Assembly (NCBI GenBank): GCA_964594075.1
Contig: CAZQKW010000009.1
Coordinates: forward strand, 11,912 to 75,911
Direction: 5' to 3'
Length of the DNA stretch: 64,000 nucleotides
Source of the DNA: an uncultured Thermodesulfobacteriota bacterium
GTDB lineage: Bacteria > Desulfobacterota > WTBG01 > CAIYCZ01
Shown: piece by piece, positions 34,666 through 56,805 of the stretch
How positions within the stretch are numbered: the stretch's first letter is position 1
Layout: every line of letters starts with the position of its first letter
Translations under genes and position numbers: made by a program
The notes under the pieces: model-generated
Told to the model about the DNA's origin: nothing
What the model saw: the letters and a program-made list of their open reading frames with translations, nothing else
Database searches by the model: none

Positions 34666-35349
34666 ATGAATATAACCGCCATTAAGGCAATACTCCGCGA
34701 CACTCTGGGTATAAAAAAAGAAGTTATTGCGTTAAAATGTGCGAAGGAACCTCCAGCCCATATCAACGCTTACGGAGACATGAATAATATCTGCTATATG
34801 ATGGGCGAGGTGCTTGAAGAAAAGAAGACTTTCTATACTACTCTTAAAGACCATGTGTGCACGCTGGGGTGTGCTGCCACCGGACTTGATCCGCGGCTGC
34901 AGAAGATGGATGATGCGGCGCGAAAGGAGACCGAAAACTATCATGTCGCCACGGTAAACATATTTCCAACGCAAGAAATTCAGGCGCGGGCAGAACAAGA
35001 GGCGCAAATGCTCTTCCCCCATTTTAATGAAACCTATGCCGCGGTCATAATGGGGACGCTGGGAGACGTTCTGGAGCCCGATGCGTTGCTGCTGTTCGGC
35101 ACCCCTGAACAGATACATGTGCTGACCCGGGCGTATTGTTATGCAGCGGGAACATTTATCAAGGGCTTTGCGGGAATGGGGGCCTGCAGGATGCTGCTGC
35201 CGTACGCCATCATTAATAAAGAACCAATTTTTACAATCAGTGACCGGGCATGGCGTAGAGCTTTAGCGCTTGCTCCTGAAGAGCTTACCCTTGCAATGCC
35301 ACCAGACAAGCTTCTTATTATGCTGGAGCATCTTGACAAGGTGCGGTAG
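34666..35349 (+). CDS. DUF169-like uncharacterised protein
   Basis: ~227 aa, Cys-containing pattern recalled as resembling DUF169 family; low certainty. Confidence 0.35.
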   Translation: MNITAIKAILRDTLGIKKEVIALKCAKEPPAHINAYGDMNNICYMMGEVLEEKKTFYTTLKDHVCTLGCAATGLDPRLQKMDDAARKETENYHVATVNIFPTQEIQARAEQEAQMLFPHFNETYAAVIMGTLGDVLEPDALLLFGTPEQIHVLTRAYCYAAGTFIKGFAGMGACRMLLPYAIINKEPIFTISDRAWRRALALAPEELTLAMPPDKLLIMLEHLDKVR

Positions 35350-38488: not shown

Positions 38489-39208
38489 TTACGCGCCGAA
38501 TAAAAATTCCCGCAAATACCGCTCGCTCCATGCTAAGCCAAAATGATGCTGCAATGGCGTACTGCCAGGATCATAGGCAATATAATCCTCCCGATATTGT
38601 TTCAGATATTCATTGCGTCTCGTGCGCAACGCGGCATCCGTAAGCGGCGTAGCTTTGTGAATGCACAAACAAAACACCTGCAGATAATCTTTAAACGCGG
38701 CTTCTATTTGAGGAAGATACTGAGGATCGCACCACCGGTACAGAGCATATCCTGAATCATATTTTTTAGCCCAATCATGGACTTCAGAACGTCCGCCTTC
38801 TGTTTTAGGAATCCATGCGTATTTTTCAGAAATGCTTTTTAGTGGCGCAAGATATTTTGCTGTGTATTCCTTGTCTTTTGCAACAGGATGAAGATCAAGA
38901 ACCGCTATTAAAAATTTGCTTGCGCTGGCAAAGGTAAAGCCAAAAACCGGAAAATCGTAGTCAGTGCCCGGTTGTATGCTGCCAAAATGCACTATCATGG
39001 AACCGGCAAAATGCATGGCACCCATGCGTATGCCGCTTGTTTTGGGACAGGCAAAAAACTCATTTTTAATAAAAATAGTTTTATCTCCAGAATCCGCATA
39101 CTTTACAGCAAACACCGGTTCAAGCGGCAATGGCTTTAACGGAAAAGCTTTCCCCATTTCATCTTTAAGGATCTCATTAAACCGTATTGTAACTGTTTTT
39201 TCTTCCAT
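38489..39208 (-). CDS. ferredoxin-dependent bilin reductase (PcyA/PebA/HY2 family) homolog
   Basis: KTIFIKNEFFACPKTSGIRMGAMHF...FPVFGFTFASASKFLIAVLDLHP aligns with PcyA [20 protein letters not shown]...LPMFGCDLVGGRGQISAAIADLSP; C-terminal HHFGLAWSERYLREFLF matches FDBR motif FG..W.ERY...LF. Confidence 0.6.
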   Translation of the reverse strand: MEEKTVTIRFNEILKDEMGKAFPLKPLPLEPVFAVKYADSGDKTIFIKNEFFACPKTSGIRMGAMHFAGSMIVHFGSIQPGTDYDFPVFGFTFASASKFLIAVLDLHPVAKDKEYTAKYLAPLKSISEKYAWIPKTEGGRSEVHDWAKKYDSGYALYRWCDPQYLPQIEAAFKDYLQVFCLCIHKATPLTDAALRTRRNEYLKQYREDYIAYDPGSTPLQHHFGLAWSERYLREFLFGA

Positions 39209-39685
39209 ACTGATTTCCTTCTTTAAAGACCTGAAATTAATTTAACACCTCTACCATACAACTCTTTTTTTTGTTTAAGCTCGCCTTAACCCGCATTCAA
39301 TGACCTGCCAGCCAGTACCTATCAGATTTCTCCCCTGATATTGTCCCGAGGATAAAAACCGTAGATGCGATCTGTGACATAAGCTCCCTGCGAGGATCAT
39401 TTGACTCGACAAACCCTACCATTCCCGACACGATAAAGCCAGCAATATTTCCCGCCGTTATCTGTATGCCCAGTTTTTCAAAAAGCAAAAAATAAATAAA
39501 TTTTGGGAGAGATCTTTTAAAACCCGCTGTGTAACGCAGACCCGTTTCCCTGTGACTTCACATGAACAGAGATACATGATAATTAAGAAGTGCAGGTCTG
39601 AAAAGGATTGGGTGCACTGACAGACCGCCATAACTAAGAAGATGAATATGTTGTGAATATCGAAATGCCTGATGGGACATACTGA

Positions 39686-42059: not shown

Positions 42060-43031
42060 CTAAATGGGGTCACCCGGTTTCCACTCATAAATAAGAGCAG
42101 GATTATTTATATACCTCATCAGATGCTCATGAAAAGGGAAAGCCGCACCGGCATCAAAGGCGCGGTGGTCTATGGTGCCCATAACAGACATAACGCTGCG
42201 CGGAACTATTTCTCCGCCAACTACCAGGGGCGCTACATGCAGATCACCTATACCTATGAAAAATACTTCGGGTGGAACTATTACCGTAACGGTCTGAATA
42301 CCGGGAAGCATCATGCCGATGTTTGCAACGGTGCAGGTTGCGCCCATGATGTCCTCCGGCTGGAGTTTTTCCGTTTCCGGCACATTTGCTGTTGCGGAGT
42401 CAGGTTTTATGCCGGTTATAAAACGGGCTCGCAGAAAGATCAAGAGAGAGTACAGGCCTCTAAAATCAACCTGCCGAATGGCCGTCCAGAGGAGCTTTTT
42501 CGCGGCCTTGTAGTAGAGTTCATCCTGGTTTGTACGACGAGCCTTGCGTGCCAGAATGCGCATTTCCTGCGCCACTGTTTCCAGGTCTTTGAGATGAGGA
42601 TTGTGAAGGACGGGCCGCACAACGCCAACCGGTGTATTGACCGTAAAACTGAGATTGATGTCTTCAGCTTCATACAACGTGCCGCCATGGCTCAGCGGGC
42701 GATAGTCAAGAAAACTGTTCAGCGCCGGCACGTGGTATAAACAATGTGCAACAGCCTTGATGAAAAATGCAGAAAAATTTTTTCGAATCGCACGCTGCAA
42801 CAGCTTCTTGTCCGAATTTTCAGCCTGTTCTGCAGCCGCTTCTTGTGATGAAGCCTTTGCATATTCCACCAGCGGTGTTACATCAAGCTGAAGAATCATC
42901 GCTGCATGGGGGATTTTCTTGGCAGATTCAGACAGGAGATGAGCGACACTTTCCCGAAGCAGGCTAAATCTCCGTGCTTGGCGCACTTTAACATTTTGCA
43001 GTTGATAGGCTATTTTATACGGTTTAAACAT
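42060..43031 (-). CDS. stand-alone 2-oxoacid dehydrogenase E2 / CAT-like acyltransferase catalytic domain protein
   Basis: Catalytic motif TIDHRAFDAGAAFPFHEHL (cf. E2 DHRVIDGA); no lipoyl or E3-binding domains. Confidence 0.55.
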   Translation of the reverse strand: MFKPYKIAYQLQNVKVRQARRFSLLRESVAHLLSESAKKIPHAAMILQLDVTPLVEYAKASSQEAAAEQAENSDKKLLQRAIRKNFSAFFIKAVAHCLYHVPALNSFLDYRPLSHGGTLYEAEDINLSFTVNTPVGVVRPVLHNPHLKDLETVAQEMRILARKARRTNQDELYYKAAKKLLWTAIRQVDFRGLYSLLIFLRARFITGIKPDSATANVPETEKLQPEDIMGATCTVANIGMMLPGIQTVTVIVPPEVFFIGIGDLHVAPLVVGGEIVPRSVMSVMGTIDHRAFDAGAAFPFHEHLMRYINNPALIYEWKPGDPI

Positions 43032-46409: not shown

Positions 46410-46507
46410 GGAAGTGGACAGGGCACTGGTGGCCCTCCTGGACTTCAAATCCAGTGGGAGGCGTGAGCAACGTCTCCGGTGGGTTCGATTCCCATGCACT
46501 TCCGCCA
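46410..46507 (+). tRNA. selC: tRNA-Sec (anticodon TCA), CCA encoded
   Basis: 98 nt; anticodon arm CTGGA-CTTCAAA-TCCAG (UCA); long variable arm GGAGGCG-TGAGCAA-CGTCTCC; T-arm GGTTCGATTCC; G discriminator + CCA; closely parallels E. coli selC (GGAAG...CTTCCGCCA); TATAAT ~30 nt upstream. Confidence 0.85.
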
Positions 46508-46588
46508 TTTTATAGCAAAAAGCTTTTAGCCATCAGCTTAGAAAGCTTGGGCTGATAGCGGAAAGCTCACCACAAACGGAAATTGATT

Positions 46589-47581
46589 ATGACAAAAGGA
46601 CGGATATTCAGCGGTATTCAGCCAACCGGTATCATTCATCTCGGCAATTATGTGGGCGCCATACAGCAGTGGGTTAAGCTTATGCATGATTACGACTGCA
46701 TTTACTGTATCGTGGACTATCATGCGATTACTATTGAATATGATAGGCAGACGTTGCGGGACAATATTATGGAGGCTGGGGTAACGCTTATTGCCTGCGG
46801 CATTGATCCTGAACGCTGCACGCTGTTTGTTCAGTCGCAGGTGCCGGAGCATACAGAACTGGCCTGGATTTTTAACTGTATCACCCCGATAGGGGATCTT
46901 GAACGGATGACACAATTCAAGGAAAAATCCGCGCAGCACCGCGAGCATATAAATATGGGATTGCTGGACTACCCAGTTTTGCAGGCTGCGGACATTCTTA
47001 TTTATAAGGCCGGATTTGTCCCGGTCGGCGAAGATCAGGTGCAGCACATAGAATTGACGCGCAGGACTGCACGACGGTTTAATAATCGGTTTGGAGAGAC
47101 ATTTCCCGAACCACAAGAGATACTCACGCCCACATCGCGAATCATGGGAACAGACGGCAAAACCAAAATGTCAAAATCATTGAATAATTATATCGGGATA
47201 CTTGAACCGCCGGACGTAATCTGGGAAAAGCTGAGAACTTCGGTCACCGACGAGAATCGCAAGCGCCGTAACGATCCGGGGAATCCTGATATCTGCAACC
47301 TTTTTACCATCCATAAGGTATTTTCAGCGCCGGAAGATATCGCACGAATTAATCGCGCCTGCAGAACCGCGGAGATTGGCTGCATTGAATGCAAGAAAAT
47401 TCTTTTTAATTATTTGATGGCCCACCTTGAGCCTATTCAGCAAAGCGCGGCAAAGCTCCGTGATAAACCTGAACTGGTTATTGATGCACTTGATGAAGGC
47501 GCGCGTCGGTGCAGAGAAATGGCAGCCCACGTGATGGATGAAGTGCGGGTAAAAGTGGGACTGTTGCCTTGCACCAAATAA
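46589..47581 (+). CDS. trpS: tryptophan--tRNA ligase
   Basis: Class I motifs (GIQPTGIIHLGNY HIGH-like, KMSKS). Confidence 0.9.
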   Translation: MTKGRIFSGIQPTGIIHLGNYVGAIQQWVKLMHDYDCIYCIVDYHAITIEYDRQTLRDNIMEAGVTLIACGIDPERCTLFVQSQVPEHTELAWIFNCITPIGDLERMTQFKEKSAQHREHINMGLLDYPVLQAADILIYKAGFVPVGEDQVQHIELTRRTARRFNNRFGETFPEPQEILTPTSRIMGTDGKTKMSKSLNNYIGILEPPDVIWEKLRTSVTDENRKRRNDPGNPDICNLFTIHKVFSAPEDIARINRACRTAEIGCIECKKILFNYLMAHLEPIQQSAAKLRDKPELVIDALDEGARRCREMAAHVMDEVRVKVGLLPCTK

Positions 47582-50387: not shown

Positions 50388-50576
50388 CACATTCAGGTAA
50401 TGTCGCTCGCTCACATGATAAAATGAATTTATAAACGGGTAAGCAGGGTCTGGTCATGGATTTAACATTTTTAAGGGGTTTGCATTTGTAATTTTCTGTT
50501 TGTTTTGGTATTTATAAATATTTTCTGTCAAAAAGTGGCAAGTGGGCTAAAAGTATTTTATATATTAATCAGATTT

Positions 50577-50990
50577 ATGGAACGCGAATTCACTCCCAGC
50601 ATCCTCATATTCTGTTGTCAGAATGCAGTTGTTTCTCCCAAAAAACTGATTGAAGAATTTGATCACCCTGAGACCATAACGGTAATCGAACTTCCTTGTT
50701 CGGGTAAGATGGAGACCATCTATGCATTGCAGGCTTTTGAAAAGGGCATTGATGGCGTTTGCGTAACCGGCTGCAGGGAAGGACAATGTCATTACCTTGA
50801 GGGCAACCTGAGAGCGGCAAAACGAGTCCATCAAATTGCAGTGGTGCTGGATGAGTTACATCTGGGCGCTGATCGGGTGCAGATGCTGAATGTAGATTCT
50901 GCTGATGATTCGGCATTTAAGCAGTCTGCGGGGGCTTTTATTCAGCGGCTTAAAACCATCGGACCAAATCCCTTGAAAAAGGGGGACTAG
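50577..50990 (+). CDS. MvhD/FlpD-like hydrogenase-delta-subunit-type iron-sulfur protein
   Basis: ILIFCCQNAVV N-terminal Cys pair and CVTGCREGQCHY cluster typical of the FlpD/MvhD family. Confidence 0.5.
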   Translation: MEREFTPSILIFCCQNAVVSPKKLIEEFDHPETITVIELPCSGKMETIYALQAFEKGIDGVCVTGCREGQCHYLEGNLRAAKRVHQIAVVLDELHLGADRVQMLNVDSADDSAFKQSAGAFIQRLKTIGPNPLKKGD

Positions 50991-51087
50991 TTAGCCACCC
51001 CAGCGTCTTTTATTCCTGTCGTGCCGGCAGGCTGTGTTACGGTTAGTTCTTCCATTTACTTGTTCAAGCAGTAAAGGTCACATAACT

Positions 51088-52479
51088 ATGCCCAAAAAGT
51101 ATCATATTGATTTCAAGCAGGCTGCGCCCCGCTATACGCCGCTGGGCAAATCGGGGATTATTGATTTTCGGGAGGGATGCACCCGCTGCCGTCCCTGCGC
51201 AAAAAAGGCCTGTGTATACAATGTGTATGATAAGCGCAATTTTGACAATGTATTGATGCTGGATTCCATAGATTACCTCTGTAAAAACTGTTTTCGGTGT
51301 GTTCAGCAGTGCAAAAAAGGCCTTTTAACCAAGTCCACCAATCCGGAATATGAAAAAATGGGCGATGCCTATTGGACGCCGGAAATTATCGCTACTAACT
51401 GGGCGCAGGCTGAAACAGGGAAGATTCCTGTTTCAGGGGCCGGTTACGGCGGGCCGTTTGCTGGGCCCGGATTTGACAGCATGTGGACAGATATGTCAGA
51501 AATTGTGCGCCCCACCAGAGACGGGATTCACGGCAGGGAATATATAAGCACCGCGGTTGATATAGGGAAAAAACTGCCACAGCTCTATTTTAATGACGCA
51601 GGAGTCCTTGCATCCCCGTTTCCCCCGCTAATCGAATTGCCCATACCCATGATAATGAGTTTTCCCTCATTCGGGCATATAAGCAAAAACGTGAAGAGTG
51701 CACTGGCGCTGGCGGCATCAAAGGTCGGAACCATGCTGCTGATATCGGCAGAAGATTATGAAGACTATTTAATAAATTATAAACAGTGTCTCATACCCCA
51801 GTTCTCTGAGGAACACTATGCGATGCTACAAGACAAGATTGCTGGACATCGCGCAATTGAAATAGTGTATTCAAAAGGCAGCAGCGAGCTGTTTAAAGAA
51901 ATTAAACAGAAATTCCCTGATGTTATTGTTTTTTTCAAAGTACCGCTGGACGGGAGAGAACTGGAAATCAGTGAAGAGCTTGTTTCTCAGGGTGCCGAAG
52001 TTATCCACCTGTATGCCGATGACAACGGGAATGAAATTGGCAAAACAAATCCGCGGTTTATCAAAGACATGATTCGGCGCGTACACCTGCGACTGGTAGA
52101 ACTATGTCTGCGCGATCACATCACACTAATCGCAGGCGGTGGCATTGCCATGGCGGAGCATGTAGCCAAAAGTATTATATGCGGGGCAGATGCAGTGGTA
52201 ATGGATATTGCACTGCTCATTGCGCTGGAATGCCGGCTCTGCAAACGATGTATAAAAAATCGGCCATGCCCCGTTACTATTGACAGTATAGAACCCGCCT
52301 GGGGATCGCAGCGCGTAATGAATCTGCTCTCAGCTTGGCGCAACCAGCTTCTGGAAGTGCTTGGCGCCATGGGCCTTAGAGAAGTGAGGCGACTGCGGGG
52401 TGAGGTGGGACGTTCTATGTTTTTTGAGGAATTGGAAGCAGATGTTTTCGGGAGGCTTTTTGGAAAGAGATTAACATGA
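51088..52479 (+). CDS. glutamate synthase domain-2 (FMN)-like protein with N-terminal 2x[4Fe-4S] ferredoxin motifs; divergent paralog of the next gene
   Basis: CTRCRPCAKKAC and CKNCFRCVQQCKKG Cys clusters; IAGGGIAMAEHVAKSIICGADAVVMDIALLIALECRLCKRC parallels the next gene's IASGGIRTAHDVAKAIALGADGVVIGTADMVALECVRCHNC. Confidence 0.5.
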   Translation: MPKKYHIDFKQAAPRYTPLGKSGIIDFREGCTRCRPCAKKACVYNVYDKRNFDNVLMLDSIDYLCKNCFRCVQQCKKGLLTKSTNPEYEKMGDAYWTPEIIATNWAQAETGKIPVSGAGYGGPFAGPGFDSMWTDMSEIVRPTRDGIHGREYISTAVDIGKKLPQLYFNDAGVLASPFPPLIELPIPMIMSFPSFGHISKNVKSALALAASKVGTMLLISAEDYEDYLINYKQCLIPQFSEEHYAMLQDKIAGHRAIEIVYSKGSSELFKEIKQKFPDVIVFFKVPLDGRELEISEELVSQGAEVIHLYADDNGNEIGKTNPRFIKDMIRRVHLRLVELCLRDHITLIAGGGIAMAEHVAKSIICGADAVVMDIALLIALECRLCKRCIKNRPCPVTIDSIEPAWGSQRVMNLLSAWRNQLLEVLGAMGLREVRRLRGEVGRSMFFEELEADVFGRLFGKRLT

Positions 52480-54029
52480 CAGCACAGAGTAAGATTGCAG
52501 AACCGGCAGACCGCCGCCAAACGTTTCCGCCAATTAAACGCGCTCCGTCGCGATTCAGAAACCCCATCGGAAAATATAAAATCAGAAGGGGGGCGCAGTG
52601 CATTGCCTGCGGGAAATGCGCCACACTGTGTCCGGAGGGTGTTCACGTAAAGGCGGGAGACGCAATGGGTAAACCGCATGACTTTTACTGCCTGGGGTTT
52701 TCCTGCAAAAACAATTCATTTTATTGTATTGATAATTGCCCGGTACATGCGTTGCGGCTGGTCGAGAACCCGTTGTGCCAGACGTTAGGCGATTTGCGCT
52801 GGACCAGCGATCTGCTGATTAGCACCTGGTACATGGCCGAAACCGGCGAAGTTCCCCGGGCAGACATTGAGTATTGCCTCGGCAACAGTAACGGGGGGTT
52901 TGACAAGCTGAGATTTAAAGCTGCCGCCACAATGCCGGGAGCCGAAGTTTCTGATGATGAAATTTCTACCGCAATTGATCTTAACCGCAGCAATGACGGA
53001 CGCCCCTTGGTGACCATTCAGGTTCCTTTTTATGGCGGCGGCATGTCGTTTGGCTCGGTAAGCTTAGCCACCATGGTGTCGCGGGCGAAAGCTGCTGCGG
53101 CGTGGGGGTCCTTTGGTTGTACGGGAGAAGGCGGCTATCCTGAGCACCTCATACCATATGACAACCATATGATCACCCAAGTCGCGACTGGTTTGTTTGG
53201 TGTCCGCGAGCAGACAATTCAGCGCGTGCGCATTGTAGAATTTAAATACGCGCAAGGCGCTAAACCCGGTCTTGGCGGTCATTTGCTGGGCGACAAGGTA
53301 ACGCCGGGCGTGGCCAAAATGAGAGAAGCGGTGGTCGGCAACGCCCTGTTTTCTCCCTTCCCCTTTCATAGCGTGTATTCGGTGGAAGACCACAAAAAAC
53401 ATGTTGACTGGATAAAACATGTAAATCCACAGGCGCTGGTATCCGTTAAAGTATCCACGCCCACCGATGTGGATATGGTTGCGGTGGGCATATATTATGC
53501 GGGAGCGCATATCATTCACCTTGACGGCAGTTACGGCGGAACTGGCGCAGCACCTGATATTGCGAAAAAAAATATCGCTATGCCCATTGAATATGCCATA
53601 CCCAAGGTGCATCAGTTTCTTTTGGAAGAGGGTATTCGGGATCGTATTACCCTCATTGCCAGCGGCGGTATCCGCACCGCCCATGATGTGGCCAAGGCAA
53701 TTGCACTGGGCGCAGACGGCGTAGTTATTGGTACTGCTGATATGGTGGCGCTTGAATGCGTGCGCTGCCACAACTGCGAAAGCGGGCGGGGATGCGCCCG
53801 AGGCATTGCCAGCACGGATCCCCGTCTGTCGGAAATGATAACAGTTGAATGGGGTGCCCAGCGGATAATAAACCTCTATACAGCATGGCGCACGCAATTG
53901 GTGCAGATACTCAAGCAATTCGGCATGCGCAGTATAAAAGAACTGGTTGGACGAACTGACTGCTTGTATCATGTTGATTATGTGGAGGGAAAGGATTCCG
54001 TGCACAGAGCAGCAGGAGGAGGAAACTGA
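52476..54029 (+). CDS. archaeal-type glutamate synthase FMN-binding subunit (GltB domain 2-like) with N-terminal ferredoxin motifs
   Basis: 4Fe-4S motifs (CIACGKCATLCPEG), Glu_synthase FMN domain segments (GGGMSFGS, KPGLGGHL, IASGGIRTAHDV); ATGA overlap with upstream paralog. Confidence 0.65.
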   Translation: MTAQSKIAEPADRRQTFPPIKRAPSRFRNPIGKYKIRRGAQCIACGKCATLCPEGVHVKAGDAMGKPHDFYCLGFSCKNNSFYCIDNCPVHALRLVENPLCQTLGDLRWTSDLLISTWYMAETGEVPRADIEYCLGNSNGGFDKLRFKAAATMPGAEVSDDEISTAIDLNRSNDGRPLVTIQVPFYGGGMSFGSVSLATMVSRAKAAAAWGSFGCTGEGGYPEHLIPYDNHMITQVATGLFGVREQTIQRVRIVEFKYAQGAKPGLGGHLLGDKVTPGVAKMREAVVGNALFSPFPFHSVYSVEDHKKHVDWIKHVNPQALVSVKVSTPTDVDMVAVGIYYAGAHIIHLDGSYGGTGAAPDIAKKNIAMPIEYAIPKVHQFLLEEGIRDRITLIASGGIRTAHDVAKAIALGADGVVIGTADMVALECVRCHNCESGRGCARGIASTDPRLSEMITVEWGAQRIINLYTAWRTQLVQILKQFGMRSIKELVGRTDCLYHVDYVEGKDSVHRAAGGGN

Positions 54030-54174
54030 CGCTAAAAATCCTTAACGTTACCTGCGACCCTCTGTGCCACTTTACAAATTTAACCCATCCCGGCATGGGG
54101 GGTGAGGATTTGGGTTTCAGGGTTTAGTATCCCAAAGCTATTTAAGCATCGAGGCTATTTAATTTATTCATACC

Positions 54175-56805
54175 ATGAAAGATATAGCTGTTATTCAAAA
54201 AATTATTGCGTCGCGCAGAACATTGATACCTGCCCAAGCAAGCCGCCACTATCAGAAGGTGGAGGAAGAAGGGGGGTGCGGTGTTACCGGATTCGCCTCA
54301 TCAATTCCGGTAGGCGGCAAACACATCTTTGAGCCCTCAGTGCAGATGCACAACCGCGGCAATGGCAAAGGGGGAGGAATTGCGGCGGCCGGCTTGTGCG
54401 CCGACGACCTGGGTGTCACGCAGGAAATCCTTGATAATGATTATCTGTTACAGGTAGCTTTTCTTGACCCGCATGCTCGCGAGCAGGTTGAACAGGAATG
54501 CATCCGGCCATTTTTAGACATTGATAATGCGGAACGGATTCCCACCATAGATGATTTCCGCGAGATAGCGGGCCTTGAGACGCGTCCTCCGGATGTATGG
54601 CGCTACTTTGTGCGGGCGAAGGAAAAGGTCCTTGCTGATTTCAGAGAAAAACATGGTTTGGAAAAGCTGGATTATAGAAAAGCGGAGGATGAGTTTATCT
54701 ACCAGAATTCCTATCGCTTGAACCAGAAATTTTACACCTCGTTAGGCGAAAAACGGGCGTTTGTTCTTTCCCACGCGCGCGACATGATGGTGCTGAAAAT
54801 TGTTGGCTATGCCGAACAGGTGGCACAGTATTATAAACTTGAAAATTTCAAGGCGCATATCTGGATTGCCCATCAGCGCTACCCGACCAAAGGTAAGGTC
54901 TGGCACCCGGGCGGCGCGCATCCATTTATTGGGATGCATGAAGCATTGGTGCATAACGGTGATTTTGCCAACTATTACTCGGTGACGGAGTATCTTCGGC
55001 AGCGAAATATTTATCCGCAATTTCTCACAGATACCGAAGTCTCAGTGCTGTTATTTGATTTGTGGAACAGAGTGTATGGATATCCGCTTGAATATATCAT
55101 TGAGGCGTTGGCGCCCTCGGGCGAAATGGATTTTGATTGTCTGCCGCCAGAAAAACAAAAAATTTACCGGGCCATTCAGGCAGCACATATTCATGGCTCA
55201 CCTGACGGCCCGTGGTTTTTTATAATTGCTCGGCATGATCCCTACACCAATCGCTATCAACTGCTGGGAATTACCGATACCTCTATGCTTAGGCCGCAGG
55301 TATTTGCCCTGCAGGAAAGCGAGGCCGTGCAGATCGGTCTCATCTGTTCTGAAAAACAGGCCATTGATGCGACGCTGCATAGTCTCTCGGAAGAAGATAA
55401 ACGGTTCGGCCCCATCGCAGACAAATACTGGAATGCGCGCGGGGGAAGCCATACAGATGGCGGCGCCTTTTTGTTTGAATTTACCAAGAACGGCTCGTCC
55501 ACTGCGGCCGCAGGTTTTACCTGTCGAGACAAATTTGGCAGGATAATATCTACGGCACAGAACCAGCAGCATCGTGATCGCAGCATCGAAGTCTTTTCAG
55601 CCCCTGCCCCTGCCTCTGGCGCGGCAGACGTGCTATCTGCATTTGAAGAAAAAACCGCGGTGGAGATGTTTGAAGTAATAAGAAATAAGATTCAGCAGTG
55701 GGATTTTACCACCTGTGGCTGGTGTTTTGATCAGGTGAGCGCGTTTGGCAGCCGTGATGGGGCGGCCTACGAGAAAGCTCTCGGAGTTCTTACGCGCCTG
55801 ATTGATTACCGTTATGCAACCGGCAGCAAAAAACGCAGCTCGCTACTTGAACTGCTCAATCGCAGCCTGTATAAATTGTTTGCCAGTGTGCCCCAGATCA
55901 TAGACCCGGCCACCGTCCCTTGTAAGCGGATTGACTGGCAGTTGCGCCAGCACCTGCGGCCGCCGGCGGCTTCGGAAACGACGCTCATTGTTTATGCGCG
56001 AGACTTTCCGCCCGAAGGCGAAGACTGTGATGCGCGCCTGTTATGTGATGCTTATAAACTGGGATGGAAACGTTTTATTGTCTATGGATGCCGTGGCCAG
56101 CGTTTTTATGGATGCGGATTTGGGCCGGATACGAGCGGGGTGCGTATTGATGTGTACGACAGCTCGGGCGATTATCTGGGATCCGGCGTTGACGGTATGG
56201 AAATATATGTGCACGGCAATGCTCAGGATCAGCTCGGGCAGATAATGAAGGCCGGTAAGCTGGTGATTTACGGCGATGTGGGACAAACCTTTCTTTACGG
56301 GGCCAAAGGGGGCGAGGTGTTTGTCATGGGTAATGCGGCAGGACGCCCGCTTATTAATGCAGTTGGCTGTCCCCGGGTCGTTATTAATGGCACCTGCCTT
56401 GATTACCTTGCTGAATCATTTATGGCGGGAGACCCGCTCAAAGGGGGTGGCTTTGTTGTGCTTAACGGACTGGAATATGATGAAAACGGTGTCGTCAGAG
56501 AACAGGCCGTCCCCTATCCCGGATCAAACCTCTTCTCGTTGGCTTCTGGTGGAGCCATTTATGTTCGCGATCCCCATAAACTGGTTGTTGAGGAGCAGCT
56601 GAACGGCGGCTCATTGGTTCCCCTTGCGCAGGAGGACTGGCACCTGATCCTGCCCTATTTGCAGGAAAATGAAAGATTGTTTGGTATATCAATTGAAAAG
56701 GATCTCCTGACGGTCAACGGCTCAGTAAAGACCCCGTACGAAGTGTACCGAAAAGTTGCGGCAGTAAGGCTTGCCGTGCTGACCGACGTTGATGATGATG
56801 CATGA
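54175..56805 (+). CDS. glutamate synthase amidotransferase (class II GATase) + GXGXG domain fusion (GltB domains 1 and 3-like)
   Basis: Cys nucleophile in GGCGVTGF after a ~33-aa putative propeptide; C-terminal GXGXG repeats (GDVGQTFLYGAKGGEVFVMGNAAGRPL). Confidence 0.65.
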   Translation: MKDIAVIQKIIASRRTLIPAQASRHYQKVEEEGGCGVTGFASSIPVGGKHIFEPSVQMHNRGNGKGGGIAAAGLCADDLGVTQEILDNDYLLQVAFLDPHAREQVEQECIRPFLDIDNAERIPTIDDFREIAGLETRPPDVWRYFVRAKEKVLADFREKHGLEKLDYRKAEDEFIYQNSYRLNQKFYTSLGEKRAFVLSHARDMMVLKIVGYAEQVAQYYKLENFKAHIWIAHQRYPTKGKVWHPGGAHPFIGMHEALVHNGDFANYYSVTEYLRQRNIYPQFLTDTEVSVLLFDLWNRVYGYPLEYIIEALAPSGEMDFDCLPPEKQKIYRAIQAAHIHGSPDGPWFFIIARHDPYTNRYQLLGITDTSMLRPQVFALQESEAVQIGLICSEKQAIDATLHSLSEEDKRFGPIADKYWNARGGSHTDGGAFLFEFTKNGSSTAAAGFTCRDKFGRIISTAQNQQHRDRSIEVFSAPAPASGAADVLSAFEEKTAVEMFEVIRNKIQQWDFTTCGWCFDQVSAFGSRDGAAYEKALGVLTRLIDYRYATGSKKRSSLLELLNRSLYKLFASVPQIIDPATVPCKRIDWQLRQHLRPPAASETTLIVYARDFPPEGEDCDARLLCDAYKLGWKRFIVYGCRGQRFYGCGFGPDTSGVRIDVYDSSGDYLGSGVDGMEIYVHGNAQDQLGQIMKAGKLVIYGDVGQTFLYGAKGGEVFVMGNAAGRPLINAVGCPRVVINGTCLDYLAESFMAGDPLKGGGFVVLNGLEYDENGVVREQAVPYPGSNLFSLASGGAIYVRDPHKLVVEEQLNGGSLVPLAQEDWHLILPYLQENERLFGISIEKDLLTVNGSVKTPYEVYRKVAAVRLAVLTDVDDDA

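Follow-up and report, generated by a model that had tools for sequence, protein, structure and literature searches.

What does a protein of the bilin reductase family do in bacteria that look strictly anaerobic and show no obvious means of making biliverdin with oxygen? This question is raised by one gene in a 64,000-nucleotide stretch of DNA from an uncultured Thermodesulfobacteriota bacterium (assembly GCA_964594075.1, contig CAZQKW010000009.1, positions 11,912 to 75,911), hereafter the window. The gene encodes a protein with the fold of the ferredoxin-dependent bilin reductases (FDBRs), which are usually regarded as pigment-making enzymes of oxygenic phototrophs. The finding of pre-PcyAs in heterotrophs moved the origin of FDBRs into non-photosynthetic bacteria (Rockwell et al. 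2023, PMC10151467). We find that the window gene and its close homologs form a distinct, uncharacterized and anaerobe-restricted FDBR clade, with a rebuilt active site, that lies outside all characterized branches. The substrate is probably a tetrapyrrole.

The gene, its fold and its active-site residues

The gene is an ATG-started, uninterrupted open reading frame (ORF) of 239 codons preceded by a ribosome binding site-like sequence, and homologs of 239-240 amino acids (aa) use the same start.

38489..39208, minus strand: coding sequence of an FDBR-fold protein of the Fe_bilin_red family, 239 aa (ORF, Pfam, AlphaFold2 model, Foldseek, dN/dS)
39216..39220, minus strand: Shine-Dalgarno-like AAGGA, 7 nt upstream of the ATG at 39208-39206 (read from the sequence)

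The protein matches the Pfam profile PF05996 (Fe_bilin_red) with an E-value of 1.3e-32 and a score of 113.7 bits (gathering cutoff 31). The match spans profile positions 4-227 of 228, and the protein's sequence matches in the PDB are GtPEBB, PebA, PcyA and HY2. An AlphaFold2 model made from 16 homologs has a predicted local distance difference test (pLDDT) score of 90.4 and a predicted template modeling (pTM) score of 0.89. Using Foldseek, we found that the alpha/beta/alpha sandwich of this model superposes on solved FDBRs, with the top matches being GtPEBB (E 8e-14, template modeling (TM) score 0.82), tomato HY2 (TM 0.86-0.87), PebA (0.78) and PcyA (~0.79). RCCR structures rank under all FDBRs except PebS and PcyX (E ~1e-8, TM 0.71-0.76), and coproporphyrinogen oxidase (HemF) gives only a marginal match. 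The original prediction, made from the sequence alone, had placed the protein in the FDBR family, and this is borne out both by the significant PF05996 match and by the fold (TM 0.78-0.87).

The gene is under purifying selection, with a ratio of nonsynonymous to synonymous substitution rates (dN/dS) of 0.21 against an ortholog of 95% identity and 0.18 against one of 82% (loci L005 and L006), and 41 alignment columns are invariant among homologs of 56-95% identity. Because the ORF is intact, the family match strong, the fold confidently modeled and the sequence under purifying selection, 38489..39208 is a real, functional gene rather than a chance ORF. We take its product to be a cytoplasmic protein with the complete FDBR fold.

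Alignment to characterized FDBRs singles out the following residues.

38984..38986, minus strand: codon TTT, Phe75, at the site of PcyA His88 and of the Asn of PebA and PebS (MAFFT alignment)
38933..38935, minus strand: codon ACC, Thr92, at the site of the central catalytic Asp (PcyA Asp105, PebA Asp84, PebS Asp105; HMMER and MAFFT alignments)
38789..38800, minus strand: codons of Glu137-Gly138-Gly139-Arg140 (alignments)
38756..38758, minus strand: codon GAT, Asp151, a family-specific invariant acid that turns an 'FS' motif into 'DS' (column statistics)
38570..38572, minus strand: codon GAT, Asp213 of a kept Asp-Pro motif (alignments; equivalences per Table 2 of PMC13446030)

By these alignments, both catalytic residues of the central beta-sheet are lost, the Asp to Thr92 and the His/Asn to Phe75. 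Thr92, in the motif FGFTFA, stands opposite PcyA Asp105, PebA Asp84 and the central Asp of GtPEBB in three HMMER pairwise alignments as well as in a 142-sequence MAFFT alignment, and the earlier reading of this position as something other than Asp is therefore correct. Thr is invariant here within the clade; in a comparison set of 127 other FDBR-superfamily sequences, which excludes the clade and its sisters, the same column holds D in 104, E in 16, N in 4 and T in none. Phe75 is likewise invariant in the His88 column, where 95 of the 127 others have Asn, the residue found in PebA, PebB and PebS. A gapped HMMER pairwise alignment would put His74 opposite PcyA His88. We rejected this assignment, since the ungapped register anchored at Pro80 = Pro93 and Gly90 = Gly103, together with the MAFFT alignment, gives Phe75; His74 itself is not conserved in the clade (H/Q/N). 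The equivalent of PcyA Glu76 is Gly63, such that Gly63, Phe75 and Thr92 stand in place of the catalytic Glu76/His88/Asp105 set of PcyA.

Other residues are kept or are particular to the clade. The fold-conserved pocket residues P80, P87, D105, P108, S152, Y175, D213-P214, G224 and W227 are all present. Arg140 aligns with PcyA Arg149, a residue that we take to have a role in propionate binding, and Trp146 with PcyA Trp154 (HMMER). The EGG insertion before Arg140 is invariant in the clade and otherwise common only to the nearest sister lineages. Asp213 corresponds to PebA Asp205, PebS Asp206, HY2 Asp256 and PcyA Asp220, the C-terminal Asp that is the A-ring proton donor in those enzymes (PMC13446030). 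Asp151 is found in all members, in a column where the frequency of D among the other FDBRs is 0.00 (F in 93), and His144, Trp159, Cys160 and Cys180 are further family-specific invariants.

Loss of both central catalytic residues, in a genomic context that is unconserved and of housekeeping character, could mean that the protein is a relic that has lost catalysis, or else a pseudo-enzyme with a structural or regulatory role that merely keeps the fold. We consider this quite unlikely. Strong purifying selection and the many family-specific invariants argue for a specific maintained function, the pocket residues and Asp213 are kept, and the gene has expanded into paralogs in some genomes, with a tandem pair in one Thermodesulfobacteriota metagenome-assembled genome (MAG; L015, 8992-9756 and 9971-10717) and three copies in MAG MFD04716.bin.2.301 (L009, L010, L021).

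Distribution of the clade and its place among FDBRs

A word-indexed search of 5.8 billion proteins returned 56 close homologs (56-95% identity), all of them metagenomic, and the next matches were cyanobacterial PebA-like proteins at 30-33% identity. Among contigs representing one genome per GTDB species, the gene was found at 15 loci in MAGs labeled Thermodesulfobacteriota, 'delta proteobacterium' or Proteobacteria. The RecA of the window is closest to those of MAGs labeled Proteobacteria (89%) and Desulfobacterota/Thermodesulfobacteriota (84%). Of 1.84 billion representatives at 50% identity, an exhaustive HMMER scan assigned only 352 to the FDBR superfamily (E <= 1e-3). All members of the clade fall into a single one of these, P0041, so one or two proteins would represent all of it. 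Its nearest relatives in the scan are P0068, P0069, P0070, P0074 and P0076 (205-113 bits), which belong to uncharacterized bacterial lineages. Altogether, the family is a small, separate and vertically inherited clade known only from uncultured Thermodesulfobacteriota MAGs, which agrees with the non-phototrophic, anaerobe-type host proposed originally. The host lineage looks strictly anaerobic, given MvhD and a selenocysteine tRNA (tRNA-SeC) in the window, and aldehyde:ferredoxin oxidoreductase (AFOR) and FmdE in relatives.

For the window protein, all NCBIfam equivalog models score far under their cutoffs, including those for PebA (NF009720 and NF009719; 90.8 vs 263 and 38.2 vs 290 bits), PcyA (NF002760; 58 vs 206) and PebB (57.6 vs 327). 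Searching a profile of the clade against the PDB gave 82.7 bits for PebA, 81.1 for GtPEBB, 55.5 for HY2, ~46 (46.8) for PcyA and 33 for PebS, and no match to PcyX or RCCR. In neighbor-joining (NJ) trees, the clade is monophyletic in 100/100 bootstraps with Kimura distances and in 200/200 with Scoredist. As proposed from the sequence, the protein is a divergent member of the family. Its sister group in the Scoredist trees is the set P0068/69/70/74/76 alone in 101/200 bootstraps and this set plus other odd lineages in 57/200. In none of the 200 does the clade pair with, or fall inside, the PebA, PebB/HY2 or PcyA/pre-PcyA-like groups alone, in trees that leave the deep branching order unsettled and in which pre-PcyA references are recognized by residue signature only. 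Asp is still present at the central site in most of the nearest sister lineages, and Thr92 is therefore a derived feature of the clade.

The more specific proposal that the protein is of the pre-PcyA/PcyX type is not supported. PebA (90.8 and 82.7 bits in the two kinds of search) and PebB (81.1) outscore PcyA (58 and 46.8), and PcyX is unmatched. The clade has neither Glu nor Asp at the Asp105 site and, at the 17 loci surveyed, none of the gene clusters of heme oxygenase, BBAG globin, V4R and Fe-S proteins, or of B12-binding protein and globin. The protein could still be an ordinary bilin-biosynthesis enzyme of this type if heme oxygenase and an acceptor, such as a BBAG globin or a phytochrome, were encoded elsewhere: active FDBRs are known in heterotrophic bacteria, some pre-1 and pre-2 genomes have a distant heme oxygenase, and our view of the host genome spans 64 kb only. 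We regard this as very unlikely, however, as pre-1 has Glu and pre-2/3 have Asp where the clade has Thr, as a sister relation to PcyA/pre-PcyA-like sequences alone is seen in none of the 200 bootstraps, and as such clusters occur at 0 of 17 loci.

Frascogna et al. mention two uncharacterized FDBR clades of uncertain placement (FEBS J 2026, PMC13193486), one of which may or may not be the present clade; the published trees are images, and no matching names stand in the accompanying text. An RCCR-like identity for the 'other half' of the tree was also considered and rejected, since Pfam gave only Fe_bilin_red for ten representatives.

Genomic neighbors in the window and across the clade

We surveyed the neighbors of the FDBR-like gene by assigning Pfam domains to 143 ORFs within 4.5 kb of it at 17 non-redundant loci. 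The most recurrent neighbor is AFOR, with 6 ORFs in 5 species, followed by MFS transporters (5) and by DUF169, FMN_red, PNPOx_N and YdjM (3 each).

L003 6010-7928, L011 10814-12778, L020 10707-12653, L001 13386-15350 and L016 5839-7740, same strand: tungsten-type AFOR genes
L001 9082-9858, L011 9214-9990, L020 8947-9723, and a more distant copy at L018 2544-3341: 258-aa PNPOx_N protein

In L003, L011 and L020 the AFOR gene is the immediate same-strand neighbor of the FDBR-like gene, and in L001 and L016 it is a few genes away. These five species belong to the more distant subclade of 55-63% identity. A BamB-type identity was not assignable to the neighboring AFOR, as FOR, BamB and AOR score alike. 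DUF169 follows AFOR in L001 and L011. Genes for DUF169 (COG2043) lie within ~5 kb of the FDBR-like gene in the window (34666-35349, plus strand), in L001 (15467-16114) and in L011 (12806-13513), three otherwise different contexts, though it may be AFOR, not the FDBR, to which this recurrence relates.

The 258-aa PNPOx_N protein, whose gene directly precedes the FDBR-like gene in L001, L011 and L020, is a cytochrome-PNPOx fusion that combines a signal peptide and a CNDCH heme-c motif with a PNPOx-like split barrel at the C terminus. We considered whether it is a HugZ-type heme oxygenase and rejected this, since it has no HugZ, HutZ or ChuZ match in the PDB and looks exported rather than like a cytoplasmic partner. 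In a sister lineage, genes for a FAD-binding oxidoreductase, a ferredoxin, a PNPOx-like protein and an FDBR stand in a row (L025, 5178-8393). Gene calling splits this FDBR gene in two (132 + 130 aa), which points to a frameshift or an error in the sequence, and a second FDBR gene lies at the contig end. Another uncharacterized bacterial lineage has a natural fusion (P0139, 327 aa) of a 4Fe-4S ferredoxin domain (Fer4, ~3-57) to an FDBR domain (135-318), in which the ferredoxin domain looks like a built-in electron donor.

In the window itself, where every sizeable ORF was scanned against Pfam, the gene content is of housekeeping type: Lpt proteins, KdsA/KdsD-like proteins, GlmS/GlmU, BamD, AlaRS, RecA/RecX, transketolase, ribonucleotide reductase, Leu/Phe-tRNA transferase, TrpRS, GlnA, split glutamate-synthase-like genes with an MvhD-type subunit, and CarA/CarB. 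The FDBR-like gene is flanked by a convergent Gly-zipper lipoprotein gene and a divergent gene for a YdjM-like membrane protein. Because it lies between convergent and divergent neighbors, it appears to be transcribed alone. A promoter and terminator scan together with an alignment of upstream regions yielded no conserved regulatory motif. A horizontal-transfer island was considered and rejected, as the GC content is unremarkable and the gene order is shared with relatives of 82-95% identity.

The window has other notable features. The tRNA-SeC gene (46410-46507, plus strand, anticodon TCA) closely precedes the TrpRS gene (46583-47581), and its presence implies that the organism uses selenocysteine. 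At 50505-56805 (plus strand), an MvhD/FlpD-like gene is followed by Fer4 + Glu_synthase, Glu_synthase and GATase + GXGXG genes, a split, archaeal-type arrangement of glutamate synthase beside glnA and carAB. A 323-aa protein encoded at 42060-43031 (minus strand) consists of a 2-oxoacid dehydrogenase acyltransferase catalytic domain only; no lipoyl or E1/E3 genes lie nearby, and its synteny is kept in close relatives.

A possible function and comparison with known systems

The reading that we tentatively favor, though we hold it as possible rather than probable, is that the protein uses ferredoxin to reduce a linear tetrapyrrole by two electrons, the substrate being either biliverdin-like or an oxygen-independent heme breakdown product. 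A tetrapyrrole bearing propionates would be bound on the face of the sheet that FDBRs usually use, and protons would come from Asp213, as they do in HY2, PebB and PebS. The central Asp would be replaced by a second donor from elsewhere, with Asp151 and His144 as the candidates. In favor of this reading are the strong PF05996 match, the superposition of the model on bilin-bound PebB and HY2, the kept pocket residues together with Arg140 and Trp146, and the purifying selection. The substrate could be biliverdin from a heme oxygenase encoded elsewhere or a different linear tetrapyrrole in these anaerobes, and in the more distant half of the clade the adjacent AFOR may supply the reduced ferredoxin. 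Ferredoxin dependence is plausible in these uncharacterized lineages because of the P0139 fusion, the ferredoxin gene in L025 and the position of AFOR as the most recurrent neighbor. There is also precedent for a central acid that is dispensable for A-ring reduction, since land-plant HY2 has Asn, Pre-2 D91N kept wild-type activity and Pre-1 E91Q remained able to reduce biliverdin (Frascogna et al. 2026, PMC13446030).

Several observations weigh against this reading. Thr92 and Phe75, which replace the two central residues, are poor proton donors, and the place of Asp151 and His144 in the pocket is putative. An O2-dependent heme oxygenase is a poor fit, because the host lineage looks strictly anaerobic. 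Neither a substrate source nor an acceptor gene is seen in the window: among its sizeable ORFs, Pfam finds no heme oxygenase, globin, V4R, B12-binding, GAF or phytochrome domain, which confirms the initial observation that no heme oxygenase, phytochrome or phycobiliprotein gene lies nearby. Heme_oxygenase is also not among the recurrent families in the 143 neighboring ORFs at the 17 loci, and the link to AFOR is absent from the window and its closest relatives.

Alternatively, the protein may not be a bilin reductase and may instead bind or process a cyclic tetrapyrrole, such as heme, protoporphyrin or an intermediate of the siroheme/cobalamin pathway, as a carrier, chaperone, sensor or enzyme. 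The natural loss of the central Asp would then have shifted the preference from linear to cyclic compounds. Heme and protoporphyrin IX co-purify with the engineered pre-3 variants D96N and E217Q (Frascogna et al. 2026, PMC13446030), and the clade has naturally made the central-Asp loss that shifted pre-3 towards these compounds. The fold is common to RCCR and to O2-dependent coproporphyrinogen oxidase (Foldseek E ~1e-8 for RCCR, weak for HemF), the host is anaerobic with no heme oxygenase nearby, and the invariant Cys160, Cys180 and His144 are the clade's own. We nevertheless consider a cyclic ligand unlikely, if the most serious competitor, as the kept Asp213-Pro214 is typical of catalytic FDBRs, no genes for heme, siroheme or cobalamin biosynthesis or transport adjoin the gene at any locus, and what was seen in pre-3 concerns engineered variants from a lineage that is distant.

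A broader reading, which we hold to be rather doubtful, would make the clade a repurposed FDBR offshoot of strict anaerobes near the 'pre-PebA' or 'archae-FDBR' type that is still to be found according to Frascogna et al. 2026. Such a protein, lacking heme oxygenase and light-sensing partners, would draw on ferredoxin, which the adjacent AFOR would reduce in some species, and would either reduce or bind some tetrapyrrole that is not biliverdin from heme oxygenase, with an oxygen-independent heme breakdown product or a cyclic porphyrinoid as candidate ligands and with an active site rebuilt around Asp213, Asp151 and His144. The clade bears on the origins of FDBRs, on the rooting of the FDBR tree and on the chemistry of the fold outside pigment synthesis.

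PcyX gives no sequence match (5owg) and a Foldseek E of 5e-3 with TM 0.50. RCCR is not the closest structural neighbor, and Pfam returned only Fe_bilin_red for the window protein. The pre-PcyAs resemble the clade in being FDBR-family proteins of non-photosynthetic bacteria, known mostly from MAGs, with non-canonical catalytic residues. However, they lie on the PcyA branch (Rockwell et al. 2023, PMC10151467) and have Glu (pre-1) or Asp (pre-2 and pre-3) at the Asp105 site (PMC13446030), where the clade has Thr92. Their defining clusters, which comprise heme oxygenase, BBAG globin, two V4R proteins and an Fe-S protein for pre-1/3 and a B12-binding protein with a globin for pre-2 (PMC10151467, PMC13446030), are absent from the window and not recurrent in the 17 loci.

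PebA and PebB are the best-scoring characterized relatives and share the fold (TM ~0.8), the length of ~240 aa and the C-terminal Asp-Pro (PebA Asp205 = Asp213). They differ from the clade in that identity is only ~23-33%, PebA Asp84 is replaced by Thr92 and the Asn by Phe75, and the clade is found in non-phototrophic anaerobes, lacks an operon with pebB, heme oxygenase and phycobiliprotein genes and falls outside the PebA and PebB clades. Land-plant HY2 is like the clade in lacking the central Asp (Asn133 in AtHY2), and tomato HY2 has the highest TM among PDB matches (0.87). It is the one characterized FDBR that is naturally without this residue, and it uses the C-terminal Asp256 for two-electron A-ring reduction (PMC13446030). 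In AtHY2, Asp116 compensates at the His88 site, whereas the clade has Phe75 there; the equivalent of Asp256 is present as Asp213. HY2 is, moreover, a plastid enzyme that is fed by heme oxygenase and passes its product to phytochrome, and it is not phylogenetically close.

The closest comparison is with P0068, P0069, P0070, P0074 and P0076. These representatives are <45% identical to the clade, with a sister relation at ~50% bootstrap, and unlike the clade all but P0076 keep the central Asp and an Asn/Thr at the His88 site. They share with it the EG(G/A)(R/K) insertion, the NDPG motif, the lack of a nearby heme oxygenase and genomic contexts of anaerobe type (Fe-S, Nitro_FeMo-Co, ferredoxin).

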